Below, in pieces: positions 30,063 through 37,347 of a stretch of 64,000 nucleotides of DNA (the first letter of the stretch is position 1; each line of letters begins with the position of its first letter). Below the pieces are notes generated by a model. It was not told where the DNA came from. It searched no databases and saw only the letters and a program-made list of their open reading frames with translations. The translations under genes and the position numbers were made by a program. Origin of the DNA: an uncultured archaeon (GTDB lineage: Archaea; Asgardarchaeota; Lokiarchaeia; Sigyniarchaeales; SOKP01); assembly GCA_964632315.1 (NCBI GenBank), contig CAZWEM010000001.1:112060-176059 (forward strand), in the 5' to 3' direction.

Positions 30063-30713
30063 ATGTTAAGTCAAACTGGAAGTAATAATCTTTTATTAAT
30101 TCTTATTACGTTTCTAGAGTTACTTTTATTAGCAATTCCAATCACTTTCATCTATTTTCTCAAAAAAGAACCCCTCTCATATCAACTAAAAATTATGGGG
30201 TTTGACTATTCACAATATAACCTTAAAAGGGTCCTAATTTGCATATTTGAAGGCATTTTGATCGGTAGCTTATTTTTATTAATCGCAAATTGGTTAATTT
30301 ATAGCTCTGAAATAATTGTTTCATATGTATTTGGAGATGCTTTTATTCAAGATGCAATAAACAATGCCATCAATGTAGAACCAACGAGACCAAATCCCTT
30401 GGAACTTACCATAATTGTTATATTACAGTTTCTAATTGTGGGTCCATGTGAAGAGGGTTTTTTTCGAGGATTCTTATTTAAAAAACTTCGAACAAAATTA
30501 AATTTTATCTTGAGCTTGTTGCTCTCTTCAGCAACTTTCGCATTTTATCACGTTCCACCTTTCATAGTTCCTTTTTCTACTATTATCTTCTATTTTGGGT
30601 ACTTCTTTGCTCTTGGTATACTGCTTACGCTCTTATACTCACTTAATAGAGGGTTGTTATTACCATGCATCATCACGCACTCGATCTTTAATATGATCGT
30701 GTTAATCACGTGA
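30063..30713 (+). CDS. CPBP (CAAX protease/Abi) intramembrane metalloprotease
   Basis: Intact motifs EEGFFRG, FAFYH and HSIFN. Confidence 0.9.
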   Translation: MLSQTGSNNLLLILITFLELLLLAIPITFIYFLKKEPLSYQLKIMGFDYSQYNLKRVLICIFEGILIGSLFLLIANWLIYSSEIIVSYVFGDAFIQDAINNAINVEPTRPNPLELTIIVILQFLIVGPCEEGFFRGFLFKKLRTKLNFILSLLLSSATFAFYHVPPFIVPFSTIIFYFGYFFALGILLTLLYSLNRGLLLPCIITHSIFNMIVLIT

Positions 30714-30887: not shown

Positions 30888-31415
30888 TTGACCGATTTTG
30901 ATTATACCTTCAAGGTAATGATGTTGGGGGATGCATCTGTAGGGAAAACATCACTCACAATAAGATATATTTCTGGATTCTTCCTTGAAGATCTTAAATT
31001 AACGATCGGGGTAGATTTTTATTCTAAAAACATACTATTTCGTGATAATAGAGTAAAATTACAAATCTGGGATTTTGGAGGAGAAGAAAGGTTCCGCTTT
31101 TTGCTTTCTCAATATTGTAAAGGGGCTAATGCCGCATTTTTTTTGTATGATATCACAAATGCAAGAACATTAGAACATTTATCTGCTTGGACAGATCTTA
31201 TCCGTAAACATGCTGGGCAAATTCCAATCATGTTGATCGGTTCAAAATTGGATTTGGCGGAGTTTCGAGCCGTTGAGAGAGAAGAAGGAATAAACGCAGC
31301 TAAAAATCATAACATTTCTGCTTTCATCGAATTATCCTCGAAAACAGGACAAAACGTTGAAGAAGCCTTTAAAACGATGGCAGAAATTCTTTTTGAAACG
31401 TATGGGGAAGATTAA
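30888..31415 (+). CDS. Rab-like small GTPase
   Basis: GDASVGKTS, TIGVDF, WDFGGEERF, SKLD, LSSKTG. Confidence 0.93.
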   Translation: MTDFDYTFKVMMLGDASVGKTSLTIRYISGFFLEDLKLTIGVDFYSKNILFRDNRVKLQIWDFGGEERFRFLLSQYCKGANAAFFLYDITNARTLEHLSAWTDLIRKHAGQIPIMLIGSKLDLAEFRAVEREEGINAAKNHNISAFIELSSKTGQNVEEAFKTMAEILFETYGED

Positions 31416-31493
31416 AATTTAACTTGGTTGAATAATAATTTTATTTGAATTATATTTTAAATATAACACTTGAAATTTTAGTAAATCGTATCT

Positions 31494-32501
31494 ATGTCAA
31501 ATAAATACTCAATATACTCAACTGGAGATACTAAAGAAATTATTACTTATTTACAATTAGGCACAAAAATTCCTAATCTTTACGATTTTTATGACACTAT
31601 TTACCATGATTTAGAATATTTTAGTACTCAAGCCTGGATTGTGAAAGATGAAGGAAATCCAATTGGATTTTGCCTAATTTTTTATCATAATAGTGAAGAA
31701 TTATATTTTGGATTTTTTAACATTCTTGATCACAATGAATTTTGTATTGAATTTTTAATACAAGAATTAAAAAAATATGCTGAAAAAAATGGATTTCAAA
31801 GAATTAGAGGTCCTATTAACATTCCAACCATAATTTTTGGTTGGGGTTTTATGGAAGCAGGTAGTAGAGGAGATTTATTTATTGGCAAACCCTTAAATCC
31901 TCCTATTTATCAAAAACTTTTTCTCAAACAAGGATTTTTAATACGAACAAGACAAAATACTTGGGAAGGCAAAATCCCTAATTTGAAGCCCTTTCTCACA
32001 ATTTATGACCTTTCTAAATATGAATTTTTCAATTTTCAGAGTTGGGAAAAATTTGACTCTTTTATTGACCAATTTTTCCTTTTATCAGCAAAGAATTTAG
32101 ATCCCGAATCTGTTTTAACTCCTTGTATTGATAAATTATTTCCGAATTATATTAATTTCACAAAAATGTATGGCAAAGAATTTTTTTTTTCCTTTGCAAG
32201 AGTTAAAAAAACAAAAGAAATGGTTGGAACGATTGCTTGTTTACCTAATCCATTCAGAAAGAATTTTTTAGGAAAATTGGATTCATTTGTAATATTTTCA
32301 ATAGCTGTAAATAAAATTCACCGAAAAAACGGTATAGGATGGGGATTATTGGATTATGTTTTTACCAAAGCTTATAGACAAGGAATAAATTTTATGTCTG
32401 CTCCAATTGAGAGTACTCAAGATGCAACTAAATATATGTCACACAAAGGAGAACTTCAAAAATCTCGTTCTCATATTATATTAGAATACAAAGTAGAATA
32501 A
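31494..32501 (+). CDS. Tandem-GNAT N-acyltransferase, YghO/bacterial ceramide synthase-like
   Basis: YFGFF...RIRGPIN...GFMEAG...PLNPPIY...GF matches the pattern I recall for this family. C-terminal acyl-CoA motif AVNKIHRKNGIG. Confidence 0.65.
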   Translation: MSNKYSIYSTGDTKEIITYLQLGTKIPNLYDFYDTIYHDLEYFSTQAWIVKDEGNPIGFCLIFYHNSEELYFGFFNILDHNEFCIEFLIQELKKYAEKNGFQRIRGPINIPTIIFGWGFMEAGSRGDLFIGKPLNPPIYQKLFLKQGFLIRTRQNTWEGKIPNLKPFLTIYDLSKYEFFNFQSWEKFDSFIDQFFLLSAKNLDPESVLTPCIDKLFPNYINFTKMYGKEFFFSFARVKKTKEMVGTIACLPNPFRKNFLGKLDSFVIFSIAVNKIHRKNGIGWGLLDYVFTKAYRQGINFMSAPIESTQDATKYMSHKGELQKSRSHIILEYKVE

Positions 32502-32611
32502 ATTTAAAAATCAAATCTAAAATTTTAACCATTGTTTAAGTATTGAAAATGAACTTTAAATATTCTCCAAATAATTAAATATTAAAGTAAATCTACTTTC
32601 TTTATATTTTA

Positions 32612-33328
32612 ATGCTATTTCAAGAGATTGTTGGCTTAGTAAGAGTTATCCTAATTTTAATTCCACAACCAATATTGGGAATTATATTTCTCTTTTTGGC
32701 TTTTAAAATTCTAAAAAGAAGGTCAACTCGAATCTCCATAACTCTTAGTGGCTTCTACATTTTAATAGGTGTTGCAATGTTCTTAAACGTAGTATTTCTC
32801 CTTCTTTCTTCAACTCTAAACGCAATATTATTGCTAGGAATTTACTTCTTTATTCTTTATTTTATTCTTACCTCATTTATTTTTGTAAGCTTATTTATAA
32901 TTCAAATGAATAGAGCTCAAGATTTTACTTTAAAAACTCAGATATTAATTATTTTGATTTATGCTATTTTGTCATTTTTACTATTAATGTATCCAAAAGG
33001 AATCAAATTAAGCAGTGAAACGAATTGGTTACCAATCTTCAGTTGGGAATTTTTGGTAGTTTTTTATGTTTATTTTACTGCGATTATTGTAATTCCTACA
33101 ATATACTTTTCCACTAAGCTTTATCATAAATTTAAAGATCCAAATCTTAAAAAGAGATTGCGTTTTTTAATTTCAGGTACTTTTGAAGGATTTATTGTTA
33201 TTTACGGGACAGCTTTATTTAATACCTGGCAAGAACCACTATTTAAATTTGCTTGGAGTTTGATTACTGTAGTATTATTGTTCTCATTAAGTATCTTTAT
33301 CTATTATGGTATTGGATCCAATCTTTGA
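32612..33328 (+). CDS. Stand-alone 7-TM membrane protein (HisKA_7TM-like sensor without a cytoplasmic output domain)
   Basis: Seven hydrophobic helices, basic inner loops (KRRSTR, KKRLR), a polar loop between TM4 and TM5; ends right after TM7. Confidence 0.6.
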   Translation: MLFQEIVGLVRVILILIPQPILGIIFLFLAFKILKRRSTRISITLSGFYILIGVAMFLNVVFLLLSSTLNAILLLGIYFFILYFILTSFIFVSLFIIQMNRAQDFTLKTQILIILIYAILSFLLLMYPKGIKLSSETNWLPIFSWEFLVVFYVYFTAIIVIPTIYFSTKLYHKFKDPNLKKRLRFLISGTFEGFIVIYGTALFNTWQEPLFKFAWSLITVVLLFSLSIFIYYGIGSNL

Positions 33329-33332
33329 ATAT

Positions 33333-34178
33333 TTAAATTTTGAAATTAATCGATTTCATACGAAAATAATCATATCCTACAATTTTCGGTGCTAATATCT
33401 TTTCTTTGATCCCTAATATACCAGAATATATAATTTCAAAAGTGATGTAAGATGCAGAAATCCTTACAATCGGGGCTAAAGAAACTAATGGTCTTTTTCC
33501 TTCTAACATCTCTCTAAACACTCCTTTTTGACGATTGTAAATGGATCGAATCTCGGGAAACTTTAAAAGTATCGATAATAATGATTGATAAAAATTCTTC
33601 CTAAAATTGGGATTCTTTTCTAATTCTTCTATTGAAATCTCGTTTGTATTAAGTTTGTAGCACGTTTCATAATCAATATTCTTATTAGTAAACCACCAAA
33701 CCCATAAATATGGAATCCCATATGATTCAATAACATCAATTTTATTTTGCTTACAAAATCGGGTCACCTTAATGCAAGCATAAGGATCGTCAAGAGTTAA
33801 TGCCACCACACTTACATTTTTTAACTTATCATTTATATTTATTTGAGAAACATCTTTAAAAGAAATTAGGTTAATATTTGGATTAATTCCTAAAATTAAT
33901 TTTTCAATGACTTTAACTTTATATTTTCCTATATCTGAAACAGAGCAAAGTTGTCTATTTAAATTAGATCGATCGAATTTATCATTATCACAAATTACAA
34001 TATTTTCACAACCCGCTCTAACAAGCTGTTCAACAACACTTCCTCCTAAACCTCCTAGCCCTAAAACAGCTATGGGTGTACTTTTTAACTTTTTCTGTTC
34101 TTTATGTGAGATTAATCCAATATTTCGAGAGATTTGTTCATTATATAAAATCTGTTTCTCATTATACATTTCTGACAT
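33333..34178 (-). CDS. ThiF/MoeB/E1-like adenylyltransferase lacking Zn-binding CxxC
   Basis: SRNIGLI..EQ, GLGGLGG, CDND, SNLNRQ, GKYKV; no CxxC pairs. Confidence 0.88.
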   Translation of the reverse strand: MSEMYNEKQILYNEQISRNIGLISHKEQKKLKSTPIAVLGLGGLGGSVVEQLVRAGCENIVICDNDKFDRSNLNRQLCSVSDIGKYKVKVIEKLILGINPNINLISFKDVSQININDKLKNVSVVALTLDDPYACIKVTRFCKQNKIDVIESYGIPYLWVWWFTNKNIDYETCYKLNTNEISIEELEKNPNFRKNFYQSLLSILLKFPEIRSIYNRQKGVFREMLEGKRPLVSLAPIVRISASYITFEIIYSGILGIKEKILAPKIVGYDYFRMKSINFKI

Positions 34179-34223
34179 GATCTAAATACCATTTTTTATT
34201 GAATATAAGAAAGACCACTTATT

Positions 34224-35474
34224 TTAAAAAAAAATTTCTTTCATACTTTCTTCTTCAAAAAATCCAAGCATTTCTAACAGTTCTTGAGACTCTGGAATCA
34301 ATTGAAGATTATCACTTAATTTTCCAGAATAATAATTGAATAAAACACTATCCTCAAAAACTTTCTTTTTGGGGTTATATTGCCAGCAAGGGACATAACC
34401 CCTAGGTTTGAATCCCATATTATAGAAAAGTTGTTGTTCTTCTGGACGATAGCCTGAAACAAAACATTGAAAATAATTAATATTCTGTGTTATAATAAAT
34501 TCTTTAATTTTTAAAAGGAAAGCTTTCAATTCTTCGAGAGATTTAACCTTGTAATAAGTCTTTTCAATTAAATTACTATATGGATTGTATTCAAATCTGA
34601 AAAAAGAATTTGCAAGATTTAATTTAATATTTAAAATATCATATTTATCTCTGCAAATTTCTTTTTCTATTTTTGCTTTGAATTCTATTACTTTACCCTT
34701 ATCAACATCTATTTTAGGATTAATTACATTGGGATATCCCAGTTTATACTTTTTAGTAGTAAATGCATATGCTTTAGTAACACTTAATATTATTTTTGGG
34801 GTTTCACGAGAACGCAGACTTCTAATTATTTCTTTATCATAAGCAGCATGTAAAAATTCTGATTCAATTTTCTCAAAAAAAACATCCTTATTTGGTAAAA
34901 ATGCTATAGGTCTTAAACCATACATAGCAGTCCCCCATTGAGGGACACTACTATAGGTTCTTACTTCACCAAACCATGAATGTTTTTGCTTCCTATAAGA
35001 ATACCAAAAATAGAGAAATGAAACTACACTAGCTTTTAAAACATCAATAATATGATGGTAATCACTTCTAATTACAAAACCATGTAAGAGAGCTTTTTTC
35101 AATCCAAAATCTAGATCTCCTCCAAAGCACCCCACAATTTTCCCTTTATCAGTTTTATAAACAGTCCATTCAGTTTTTGATTCTTCAATTCTTTTTTGAA
35201 TTTCTATAGCATCTTCCATCCTTTTATAAGGATAAGTATTACAATATAATTCTTTAAAAATTGAAGCAATTTCTTTTGATTCGTTAGGTTTAGCAATCTG
35301 AATGGTAGTTTGAATTTTTTCCTTTGTTCTCTCCTTATTTAAATTAATCTTTGCATCTAGTATTGATTTTGGGCCATACTTAATGAGATCTCTTTTTAGA
35401 TCTAAAAACTCATCGATGAATGTAATTGGTTTTTTGGAAACAGACCACTGTTCTAATTGCAATTTATCCTTCAA
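34224..35474 (-). CDS. Putative tandem-GNAT-fold acyltransferase
   Basis: IAKPNESKEIASIF..Y..TYPY, KIVG, FVIRSDYH, GLRPIAFLP; second module EQQLFYNMGFKPRGYVP. Only weak similarity to GNAT. Confidence 0.5.
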   Translation of the reverse strand: MKDKLQLEQWSVSKKPITFIDEFLDLKRDLIKYGPKSILDAKINLNKERTKEKIQTTIQIAKPNESKEIASIFKELYCNTYPYKRMEDAIEIQKRIEESKTEWTVYKTDKGKIVGCFGGDLDFGLKKALLHGFVIRSDYHHIIDVLKASVVSFLYFWYSYRKQKHSWFGEVRTYSSVPQWGTAMYGLRPIAFLPNKDVFFEKIESEFLHAAYDKEIIRSLRSRETPKIILSVTKAYAFTTKKYKLGYPNVINPKIDVDKGKVIEFKAKIEKEICRDKYDILNIKLNLANSFFRFEYNPYSNLIEKTYYKVKSLEELKAFLLKIKEFIITQNINYFQCFVSGYRPEEQQLFYNMGFKPRGYVPCWQYNPKKKVFEDSVLFNYYSGKLSDNLQLIPESQELLEMLGFFEEESMKEIFF

Positions 35475-36768: not shown

Positions 36769-37347
36769 ATGATCTTTGAACAAGAAGAACATCCAACTTA
36801 TATCTTTAAGTTATGCCTTATTGGGAATGGGGGCGTAGGGAAAACCTGCATTGCTCGACGTTTATGTTTCGATACGTTTGATGCGAATACTAAGTTAACA
36901 ATTGGAATTGATTTCTATACTTATGATTTACCAATATTGATAGAGGGAGAAGAAGGATTTGTTAGATTGAGTTTATGGGATTTTGGAGGACAAGAGCAGT
37001 TTAAGAAAATGTTCAGTTATTATATTCACGGTGCAAATGGAATTTTCCTTGTTTTTAGCTTATTTAACCTGAACAATTCCCTTTTAGGATTAAATTGGTG
37101 GAATGACCACTTGTTTAAATTAAACCATAAAAAAACCCCTAAAATGCTTGTTGGCTGCAAAAGCGATTTAATCAAAGATCCAGAAAGAGTTAATGATTTG
37201 GTTATCGAGAATTTCAGGAACAAGCACAGTAATATACCATACTTTAAAACCTCATCGAAAGAAGGGATTAATATTCGAAATATTTTTGTAGAGATGGTAA
37301 GAACCATTCTTGATGAACATGGTTTTGAATATGATAAGATTCTTTAA
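36769..37347 (+). CDS. Rab-like small GTPase
   Basis: GNGGVGKT, TIGIDF, WDFGGQEQF, CKSD, TSSK. Confidence 0.92.
   Translation: MIFEQEEHPTYIFKLCLIGNGGVGKTCIARRLCFDTFDANTKLTIGIDFYTYDLPILIEGEEGFVRLSLWDFGGQEQFKKMFSYYIHGANGIFLVFSLFNLNNSLLGLNWWNDHLFKLNHKKTPKMLVGCKSDLIKDPERVNDLVIENFRNKHSNIPYFKTSSKEGINIRNIFVEMVRTILDEHGFEYDKIL

Follow-up and report, generated by a model that had tools for sequence, protein, structure and literature searches.

We analyzed a 64,000-nucleotide stretch of DNA from an uncultured archaeon of the Lokiarchaeia (contig CAZWEM010000001.1, positions 112,060 to 176,059; hereafter the window) and found that four adjacent genes in it belong together as a co-conserved, mobile and fast-diversifying unit. 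They encode p416, a 416-residue protein with a predicted tandem GNAT fold, a ThiF-family protein without the zinc-binding CxxC pair, the acyltransferase-like protein GNAT335 and the membrane protein TM238. We tentatively favor a reading, at a probability of about 0.4, in which the four genes constitute a mobile biosynthetic module, whose product, formed at the cytoplasmic face of the membrane, is N-acylated (amide-linked) and probably amphiphilic. In the order of steps that we infer, GNAT335 would N-acylate an amine, for example an amino acid or an amino head group, from acyl-coenzyme A (acyl-CoA). The zinc-less ThiF may then adenylate a free carboxylate of the intermediate, by analogy with the action of TyzB and OxzB on N-acyl amino acids. 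p416, a double GNAT without the CoA pyrophosphate loop, could form a second amide or ester bond from the activated or another acyl donor, and in cassettes lacking ThiF it would work with GNAT335 alone. TM238, the dedicated partner in the membrane, would take up, retain or export the lipid-like product rather than act as a G-protein-type receptor.

p416, ThiF, GNAT335 and TM238 form a co-conserved unit

All five open reading frames (ORFs) and both gaps that an earlier note had listed for this region were reproduced from the ORF list at every coordinate (Table 1). The note had regarded the genes as a ligand synthase and its receptor, with the neighboring Rab-like GTPase as a possible signaling partner, and had suggested gene neighborhood analysis as a check. 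We searched 40 related genomes with ThiF and compared 20 loci ORF by ORF against the window genes. A further 20 loci were taken from other genera and families, and 39 p416 loci were sampled overall; class-wide counts refer to 161 genomes in 30 genera. Below, L-numbers denote sampled loci from related genomes and G000 the window's own genome.

All 10 orthologous loci from the same genus have p416, ThiF, GNAT335 and TM238 next to one another. Their order varies between p416-ThiF-GNAT335-TM238, p416-ThiF-TM238-GNAT335 and p416-GNAT335-ThiF-TM238, or GNAT335 is inverted. The four-gene cassette is also present in three other genera (L041, L043 and L051). Across 13 cassettes the genes are contiguous, except for a short ORF (109-115 residues) interposed in L013, L015 and L016. 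Because the grouping recurs in every sampled orthologous locus despite the reshuffled order, it is far beyond chance, and the four genes represent a real co-conserved unit. The neighborhood analysis thus upheld the linkage of the four genes and not that of the GTPase: no Ras-like GTPase, and likewise no CPBP protease, YCII protein or histone, is found beside the cassette in any of the 10 same-genus loci. The Rab-like GTPase is not part of the unit and neighbors the cassette in this genome only, and its proposed role as signaling partner is not supported. A search of the literature retrieved no published description of the cassette.

Outside the genus, the unit becomes smaller. A three-gene form without ThiF exists in L033, L039, L045 and L046, and p416 and a GNAT335-like gene alone remain in distant families (L053-L055). 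Among the 39 sampled p416 loci, 33 have a GNAT335-like neighbor within ~3 kb, 22 have ThiF and 18 have TM238. The p416 family is the most widely conserved of the module (131 of 161 genomes and 26 of 30 genera of the class), with cassette-type ThiF present in 55 genomes and 15 genera; in one genus, p416 is found in 47 of 54 genomes and ThiF in 2. When the coordinate lists were compared by hand, a listed p416 gene was no more than 4 kb away from 55 of the 75 listed ThiF copies, and most of the others are on contig ends. Being rarer than p416 and nearly always located beside it, ThiF is an accessory partner of p416, and the core of the module is formed by p416 and the GNAT335-like gene. The membrane partner is recurrent but replaceable. 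Besides TM238, it can be a DUF998 domain fused to p416 or another polytopic protein; in some sister cassettes, unrelated proteins with five or eight transmembrane (TM) segments are encoded between the GNAT genes.

Table 1. Coordinates of the genes, gaps and fusion proteins discussed in the text. Positions are those of the window unless a locus is given.
Feature	Position	Strand	Annotation
p416, 416 aa	34224-35474	-	no Pfam/NCBIfam match
ThiF, 281 aa	33333-34178	-	Pfam PF00899, E 2.2e-33
GNAT335, 335 aa	31494-32501	+	Pfam Acetyltransf_1, E 1.3e-10, residues 229-307 only
TM238, 238-aa membrane protein	32612-33328	+	no Pfam/NCBIfam match
Gap TM238/ThiF, 4 nt	33329-33332		
Gap ThiF/p416, 45 nt	34179-34223		
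Ras/Rab-like GTPase	30888-31415	+	Pfam Ras family, E 1.6e-46
CPBP/Rce1-like intramembrane protease	30063-30713		
Archaeal histone, 114 aa	36043-36387	-	
Second Ras-family GTPase	36769-37347		
p416-DUF998 fusion	L037:6904-8829	-	
p416-DUF998 fusion	L038:6676-8691	-	
p416-DUF998 fusion	L040:7439-9346	+	

A paralogous, divergently oriented pair of ThiF (~45% identical) and p416 (~35%) genes is present in the same genomes, in the window's genome at G000:C70. Here, a ~390-residue GNAT335-like gene lies 1-3 kb away, and TM238 is missing. The pair is tied to a set of conserved uncharacterized genes (L024:7847-14195, and like regions of L023-L032), which encode a ~1260-residue protein with 3-4 TM segments, a 284-residue protein with weak DUF2207_C similarity and two others. 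The ~1260-residue protein, which has no Pfam, NCBIfam or PDB match, also adjoins p416-DUF998 fusions in L037 and L040. For the other genes of the paralogous clusters, interposed membrane proteins included, Pfam and NCBIfam gave nothing beyond the weak DUF2207_C match. In four genomes (G002:C152, G008:C20, G144:C82 and G068:C89), cassette-type ThiF and the nearest p416 are found on the same contig ~43-49 kb apart, a recurring distance that suggests a large insertion or inversion splitting the pair.

The cassette is mobile and diversifies as a mosaic

In seven same-genus loci, the cassette is located between a multi-PAS histidine kinase gene and a group formed by a TPR protein gene, two genes for small proteins and Hdr-like genes. 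Pairwise identities indicate that the cassette genes are much more diverged than these flanks and that each of them varies independently of the others (Table 2). It follows that the locus holds deeply diverged types of each gene, which reassort. The window's genome contains the corresponding empty site, with the kinase and TPR genes only 69 nt apart (G000:C11; L066:8697-12842) and the cassette located elsewhere. At least three cassette contexts exist within the genus, namely the kinase/TPR flanks, the window, and that of L013, L015 and L016. The flanks of the window cassette hold AT-rich noise only and no repeats, and an integrase was not detected. Gene order in general is poorly conserved within the genus, with the orthologues of NurA and p359 found on other contigs at ~57-69% identity, and the persistence of the four-gene block therefore reflects selection for linkage. 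Together, the four genes are a mobile, fast-diversifying unit. Conserved flanks around diverged, reassorting types are likewise a property of agr specificity groups and of capsule loci, whose gene content is unrelated to that of the Asgard cassette.

Table 2. Amino acid identity (%) between pairs of same-genus loci for flanking and cassette genes.
Pair	Flanks	p416	ThiF	GNAT335	TM238
L017 vs L018	92-100	75	56	51	49
L014 vs L020	79-95	87	65	40	34
L017 vs L021	78-96	73	56	36	89
L020 vs L021	68-92	64	57	78	41
L018 vs L021	79-96	75	82	38	48

These data also bear on the explanation that the four genes form no functional unit and are neighbors by chance or through inherited synteny. All sampled genomes belong to one class and so are not independent, which speaks in its favor. 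However, the genes have stayed adjacent even though they were repeatedly rearranged and inverted, moved to at least three genomic contexts in a single genus and replaced independently of one another, while the synteny of NurA and p359 is lost. Linkage, relocation and replacement together contradict the chance explanation, which we consider highly improbable.

p416 and GNAT335 are distinct GNAT-fold proteins

We modeled p416 from 17 homologues (predicted local distance difference test score (pLDDT) 87.8) and obtained a tandem GNAT fold with an N-terminal domain (residues ~55-212) and a C-terminal domain (~270-382), in line with its earlier description as a second GNAT-like protein. Foldseek matched the model to single GNATs (E ~3e-7), and VIA-align to solved tandem GNATs with coverage of both domains (7q3a, Z 11.9 over 247 residues; 2wpw, Z 10.8 over 234 residues). 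In the p416 alignment, there is no canonical Q/RxxGxG/A CoA loop. A sequence search against the PDB gave nothing informative, no specific kinship with GNAT335 or YghO beyond the GNAT fold was detected, and a search of viral contigs with the p416 profile returned no relative. Database relatives were drawn from a collection of 5.8 billion proteins, in which most of those listed carry no source name. None of the 60 relatives of p416 has a Pfam family, and every source-named one comes from an Asgard metagenome-assembled genome (MAG). In one other genus, p416 paralogues of 635-671 residues end in a DUF998 domain of six helices (PF06197, E 5e-10), which weakly resembles Frag1/DRAM/Sfk1. The fusion gene in L040 is directly followed by GNAT335, and TM238 is absent. 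Co-folding of p416 with TM238 gave a score of 0.01, which bears neither for nor against binding.

The C-terminal GNAT domain of GNAT335 contains a canonical acyl-CoA motif, RxxGxG (HRKNGIG). Its family profile A4 (26 sequences, widened with the ~390-residue paralogues) aligned with E. coli YghO in hhalign at a probability of 97.1% (E 7.4e-11). The alignment is full length and collinear, covering 313 columns (residues 42-378 of 385 against 37-388 of 390) at ~13% identity, and includes the N-terminal halves of both proteins. In the earlier note GNAT335 had been read as a tandem GNAT, which would make its N-terminal half a second, putative GNAT domain. The match came from A4 only; the narrower profile A3 was not significant against YghO. 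By this homology, GNAT335 is classified as a putative YghO-like two-domain N-acyltransferase. YghO (b2981) is an uncharacterized GNAT-superfamily protein, for which our literature search found no functional study. In K-12, its gene adjoins the one for YghQ, which is read from the same strand and encodes a putative polytopic transport protein; unlike in the Asgard cassette, it has no ThiF, p416-like or seven-transmembrane (7TM) neighbor. Among the best 120 of 312 database relatives of GNAT335, every source-named one is an Asgard MAG. The best PDB sequence match is a marginal one, to the acyl-CoA region of N-myristoyltransferase (64 residues, E 1e-3). It places the C-terminal half of GNAT335 on the N-terminal half of N-myristoyltransferase and thus implies the opposite domain order. 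No N-myristoyltransferase match was found in a Pfam scan of GNAT335 members, and a literature search for myristoyltransferase together with Asgard archaea found no papers.

The two acyltransferases might instead modify the cell envelope or proteins. Here, the GNAT-fold enzymes, with ThiF as an optional activator, would acylate or aminoacylate the head group of a membrane lipid or else a protein of the surface or membrane; TM238, or DUF998 in its stead, would be the membrane-embedded acceptor or scaffold, and viruses or other surface-recognizing agents would drive diversification. We regard this alternative as unlikely. The near-universal presence of p416 is easier to reconcile with such a cellular function than with a secondary metabolite of sporadic occurrence. 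The fusion of p416 to DUF998, with its Frag1/DRAM/Sfk1 similarity, points in the same direction: a tandem GNAT joined to a membrane domain recalls aminoacyl-phosphatidylglycerol synthases. Also consistent with envelope modification are the local similarity of GNAT335 to a protein N-myristoyltransferase, the mosaic exchange between conserved flanks as in cps loci, and the linkage of the ~1260-residue multi-TM protein to both the paralogous ThiF-p416 pair and the p416-DUF998 fusions. Yet no target protein or lipid has been identified, and the cassette contains no glycosyl- or lipid-synthesis genes. The N-myristoyltransferase similarity is local and marginal, with the domains in opposite order, and FemX/MprF-type dupli-GNATs are not among the best structural matches of p416.

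ThiF is a predicted adenylating enzyme outside the housekeeping families

The ThiF protein retains the ATP-binding and catalytic motifs GxGGLG, ICDxD, SNLNRQ and LDDP, which are invariant in 20-21 homologues. Its lack of a CxxC pair, pointed out earlier, was confirmed in the sequence and in the homologue alignment. Given the invariant motifs, ThiF should be an active adenylating enzyme. An assignment to the housekeeping enzymes ThiF, MoeB, UbaA or TcdA could be ruled out, as all NCBIfam equivalogs score far below their cut-offs (ThiF, 78 of 275 bits; MoeB, 55 of 377; UbaA, 58 of 450; TcdA, 48 of 304). The best NCBIfam score is to PRK08223, with 93 of 266 bits. The genome encodes five other ThiF-family genes, including one of the typical MoeB/UbaA type (a 146-residue piece scores 179 bits). 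A ubiquitin-like conjugation or sulfur-carrier system was likewise rejected: the zinc-binding CxxC is missing, and 13 cassettes contain no ORF for a GG-ended beta-grasp protein. The small-ORF scan covered intergenic DNA for conserved ATG-started ORFs, with a GG end as in ubiquitin-like proteins or an MccA-like Asn end, and found none in or beside the 13 cassettes. This agrees with the earlier observation that neither a ubiquitin/ThiS-like partner nor a precursor peptide is encoded nearby.

The best solved relatives of ThiF are Tcd1, Uba1, a ThiF-type protein, MccB and PaaA, all matching in the Rossmann core (E ~1e-13 to 1e-9). Two of these bring to mind a conflict module, which would produce an antimicrobial, such as an adenylated or acylated compound akin to microcin C, with a GNAT and/or the 7TM protein providing immunity or export and an arms race causing hypervariability. 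MccB (E ~4e-12) and PaaA (E ~4e-9) are indeed among the closest solved relatives, MccE, the GNAT for microcin C immunity, is among the structural matches of p416, and the cassette combines presence/absence polymorphism at a fixed site with strong mosaic divergence. In addition, the closest plasmid relatives of ThiF reside in small-molecule-type clusters on Bacillus cereus-group plasmids. However, the MccE and MccB similarities are generic and at the level of the fold, no conserved small precursor ORF exists, p416 is near-universal rather than patchy, and its relatives were not found in viral contigs. PADLOC returned generic E1-E2 matches for the ThiF core and no defence-family match for p416, GNAT335 or TM238. 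We therefore consider a conflict module improbable. Its microcin C-type variant is rejected, since the 13 cassettes have no conserved short precursor ORF and the N-terminal peptide clamp of MccB has no counterpart in the 281-residue ThiF; the two proteins match from residue 27 of ThiF onward and in the Rossmann core only (27-144 aligned with 109-229 of MccB).

On plasmids, a tblastn search with ThiF recovered near full-length relatives (~27% identical) only from the Bacillus cereus group, where they form double-ThiF clusters without GNATs. One such locus (B. cereus NZ_CP085507.1, 90749-95420) contains two tandem ThiF genes followed by genes for a DUF441 membrane protein, an alpha/beta hydrolase and a 2-isopropylmalate-synthase-like protein; it looks like an undescribed small-molecule cluster.

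TM238 has a predicted GPCR-type fold and a recurrent kinase neighbor

The predicted structure of TM238 (pLDDT 88, predicted template modeling score 0.84) is a bundle of seven long helices with an additional short N-terminal helix and a beta-hairpin between TM4 and TM5, and its architecture is that of a G protein-coupled receptor (GPCR). This is in accordance with the stand-alone 7TM protein of the earlier note, in which comparison with receptor folds had been proposed. In VIA-align, the top 50 matches are all of GPCR type over the whole chain (Z 15.7-18.1; root mean square deviation (rmsd) mostly 3.4-3.8 Å, 4.2 Å at most). They include class A, adhesion, Frizzled and class C receptors, LYCHOS and de novo GPCR-like folds; CD97, for example, matches at Z 18.1 (rmsd 3.4 Å, 219 residues). 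Foldseek returned GPCRs only, and these weakly (E 1e-3 to 2e-2). At the sequence level, 4 of 11 TM238 members match Pfam 7TMR-DISM_7TM weakly (best E 0.0086), the window's own protein does not, and a search of PDB sequences with the TM238 profile gave nothing. In its predicted model, TM238 thus resembles GPCRs and 7TMR-DISM proteins in having seven helices in GPCR-type packing over the whole chain. It differs from them in its weak or missing family sequence match, in the lack of a fused or conserved output module and in the lack of a linked G protein; 7TMR-DISM proteins are normally fused to kinases or cyclases. 7TM proteins have been listed by others among the eukaryotic-signature families of Asgard archaea (10.64898/2026.10.28.762692, preprint), and a GPCR-like fold in these organisms is therefore not new in itself.

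An exhaustive HMMER search grouped the TM238 family into 386 cluster representatives. The best 150 are mostly ~230-250 residues long, with some shorter fragments, and none carries a fused output or signaling domain, as had been noted for the window's protein. Every source-named relative listed is an Asgard MAG. The best-conserved positions among 66 diverse members are Arg-11, Pro-141, Pro-162, Gly-189 and Tyr-231, and no conserved intramembrane acidic residue or histidine is found among them. Conserved loop motifs are PxGI...TNWxP, NTW and a basic KxYxxFxDxxLKKK loop. According to the positive-inside rule, the N terminus is probably outside, and the two best-conserved loops are predicted to face outward. 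The window's genome contains three more TM238 paralogues, none of them linked to the cassette, and distant family members elsewhere stand alone. In another Asgard MAG, a distant relative (~26% identical) is located directly upstream of a heliorhodopsin gene (L034:6001-7745), and two paralogues lie in tandem beside HHH_5, Na/Ca-exchanger and EamA genes in L035 and at G000:C13.

The multi-PAS kinase provides a further neighbor with a possible link to TM238. In addition to the seven same-genus loci, orthologues of this soluble PAS(/GAF)-HisKA-HATPase kinase are encoded beside the cassette or within 2 kb of it in L039, L041, L043, L046 and L051. In total, it adjoins the cassette in 12 of the 18 TM238-containing loci, from six genera, though not in the window's genome. 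The kinase gene and the TM238/GNAT335 end of the cassette are convergently oriented in most of the 12 loci. The PAS histidine kinase is a better candidate partner than the GTPase and fits a sensory link better. The empty site in the window's genome means that kinase and cassette are separable, and their adjacency could just as well stem from a hot spot of recombination that lies between conserved flanks.

A revised version of the proposed synthase and receptor would have a diffusible acyl-amide signal perceived by TM238 and relayed to the soluble multi-PAS histidine kinase, not to a GTPase, with pherotype-like diversification as in agr and com systems. This is conceivable, and we rate it as unlikely. 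It is compatible with the GPCR-type fold (Z 16-18 over the whole chain), the weak 7TMR-DISM_7TM matches, the predicted outward orientation of the most conserved loops, the orthologous kinase beside the cassette in six genera and the position of a variable cassette next to conserved flanks. On the other hand, the best 150 TM238 relatives have no fused signaling domain, and unrelated membrane proteins or a fused DUF998 replace TM238 in sister cassettes. No single enzyme varies in step with the TM238 types; between L017 and L021, for example, TM238 is 89% and GNAT335 36% identical, and between L020 and L021 the values are 41% and 78%. No kinase is found near the cassette in the window's genome, where its usual site is empty, and adjacency elsewhere may reflect a recombination hot spot. 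The absence of Ras-like GTPases from the 10 orthologous loci also speaks against the route envisaged earlier.

In its most far-reaching form, the cassette and the PAS kinase would be an archaeal system for cell-cell or kin recognition, in which a strain-specific acyl-amide, the product of the three enzymes, is perceived by a GPCR-fold sensor and relayed to the separate kinase, and in which the swapping of single genes between conserved flanks creates pherotype-like specificity groups. We consider this quite unlikely. If true, eukaryotes' closest archaeal relatives would possess a GPCR-shaped chemoreceptor together with the synthase of its cognate ligand. A GPCR-shaped partner, a recurrent PAS kinase and mosaic hypervariability bear on whether ligand-receptor or self-recognition systems existed in relatives of the eukaryotic ancestor.

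Comparison with bacterial acyl-oxazolone pathways

The nearest precedent for a module of this kind are the bacterial acyl-oxazolone pathways, which comprise OxzA/OxzB in Pseudoalteromonas rubra as well as TyzA/TyzB/TyzC and TrzA/TrzS in Mycobacterium tuberculosis (PMC10404671, PMC12856293). In OxzAB/TyzACB, Tyr or Phe is acylated by an N-acyl amino acid synthase with a GNAT fold. The resulting N-acyl amino acid is cyclized by a ThiF homologue in an ATP-dependent reaction and then desaturated by a nitroreductase-type oxidase (PMC10404671). The earlier statement that zinc-less ThiF proteins occur with GNAT-fold N-acyltransferases in bacteria is well founded in this work. The Asgard cassette and Oxz/Tyz have in common a GNAT-fold N-acyltransferase and a ThiF/E1-superfamily enzyme without a ubiquitin-like or ThiS partner, and in Oxz/Tyz this latter enzyme acts on a small-molecule carboxylate. 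The M. tuberculosis tyz genes are flanked by mmpL9, with a membrane protein thus encoded nearby (PMC10404671), and the Asgard unit includes a 7TM protein. Unlike Oxz/Tyz, the Asgard module has no flavin oxidase, ThiF is optional, and the 7TM protein is part of the unit. The acyltransferases also appear to differ, being a YghO-like two-domain protein and a tandem GNAT without CoA motif in Asgard archaea and single-domain proteins similar to acyl-homoserine lactone synthases and FeeM in Oxz/Tyz.

The p416-DUF998 fusions and the interposed 5-TM and 8-TM proteins tie the enzymes to the membrane, which supports the biosynthetic reading given at the outset. Also in its favor are the linkage of the four genes and their relocation as a unit, the invariant ThiF motifs in the absence of a zinc site, ubiquitin-like protein or precursor peptide, and, for GNAT335, the acyl-CoA motif, the homology to YghO and the local similarity to the acyl-CoA site of N-myristoyltransferase. 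Several points weigh against it. No product, substrate or activity is on record for the three Asgard families or for YghO. There is no counterpart of the nitroreductase that acts last in the Oxz/Tyz pathways: ThiF is not fused to one, none is adjacent in the 13 cassettes, and the window neighbors belong to other Pfam families. The acyltransferases gave no detectable OxzA/TyzA-type match, and Pfam scans (E up to 1) returned generic GNAT families only. TM238, without conserved charged or catalytic residues in the membrane, resembles a ligand-binding 7TM protein more than a transporter, it has three unlinked paralogues in the same genome, and the frequent adjacency of the PAS histidine kinase fits a sensory better than an export role.

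p416, GNAT335 and TM238, whose source-named relatives are all from Asgard (Loki-type) archaea, belong to families with no known function. If an acyl-amide lipid or signal is made, it would be the first Oxz/Tyz-like chemistry described in archaea, as far as literature searches reach, and the module would, if our reading is true, suggest a function for the uncharacterized YghO family. Even a conservative reading points to a membrane-associated metabolite under diversifying selection.

Genes around the cassette

The Ras/Rab-like GTPase beside the cassette carries no lipidation motif, having neither a C-terminal CAAX box nor an N-terminal glycine. The CPBP/Rce1-like intramembrane protease is encoded directly upstream of it, and a second Ras-family GTPase gene is present in the window (Table 1). 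In the archaeal histone, the histone fold comprises residues ~53-110 only and is preceded by an N-terminal extension of ~50 residues.

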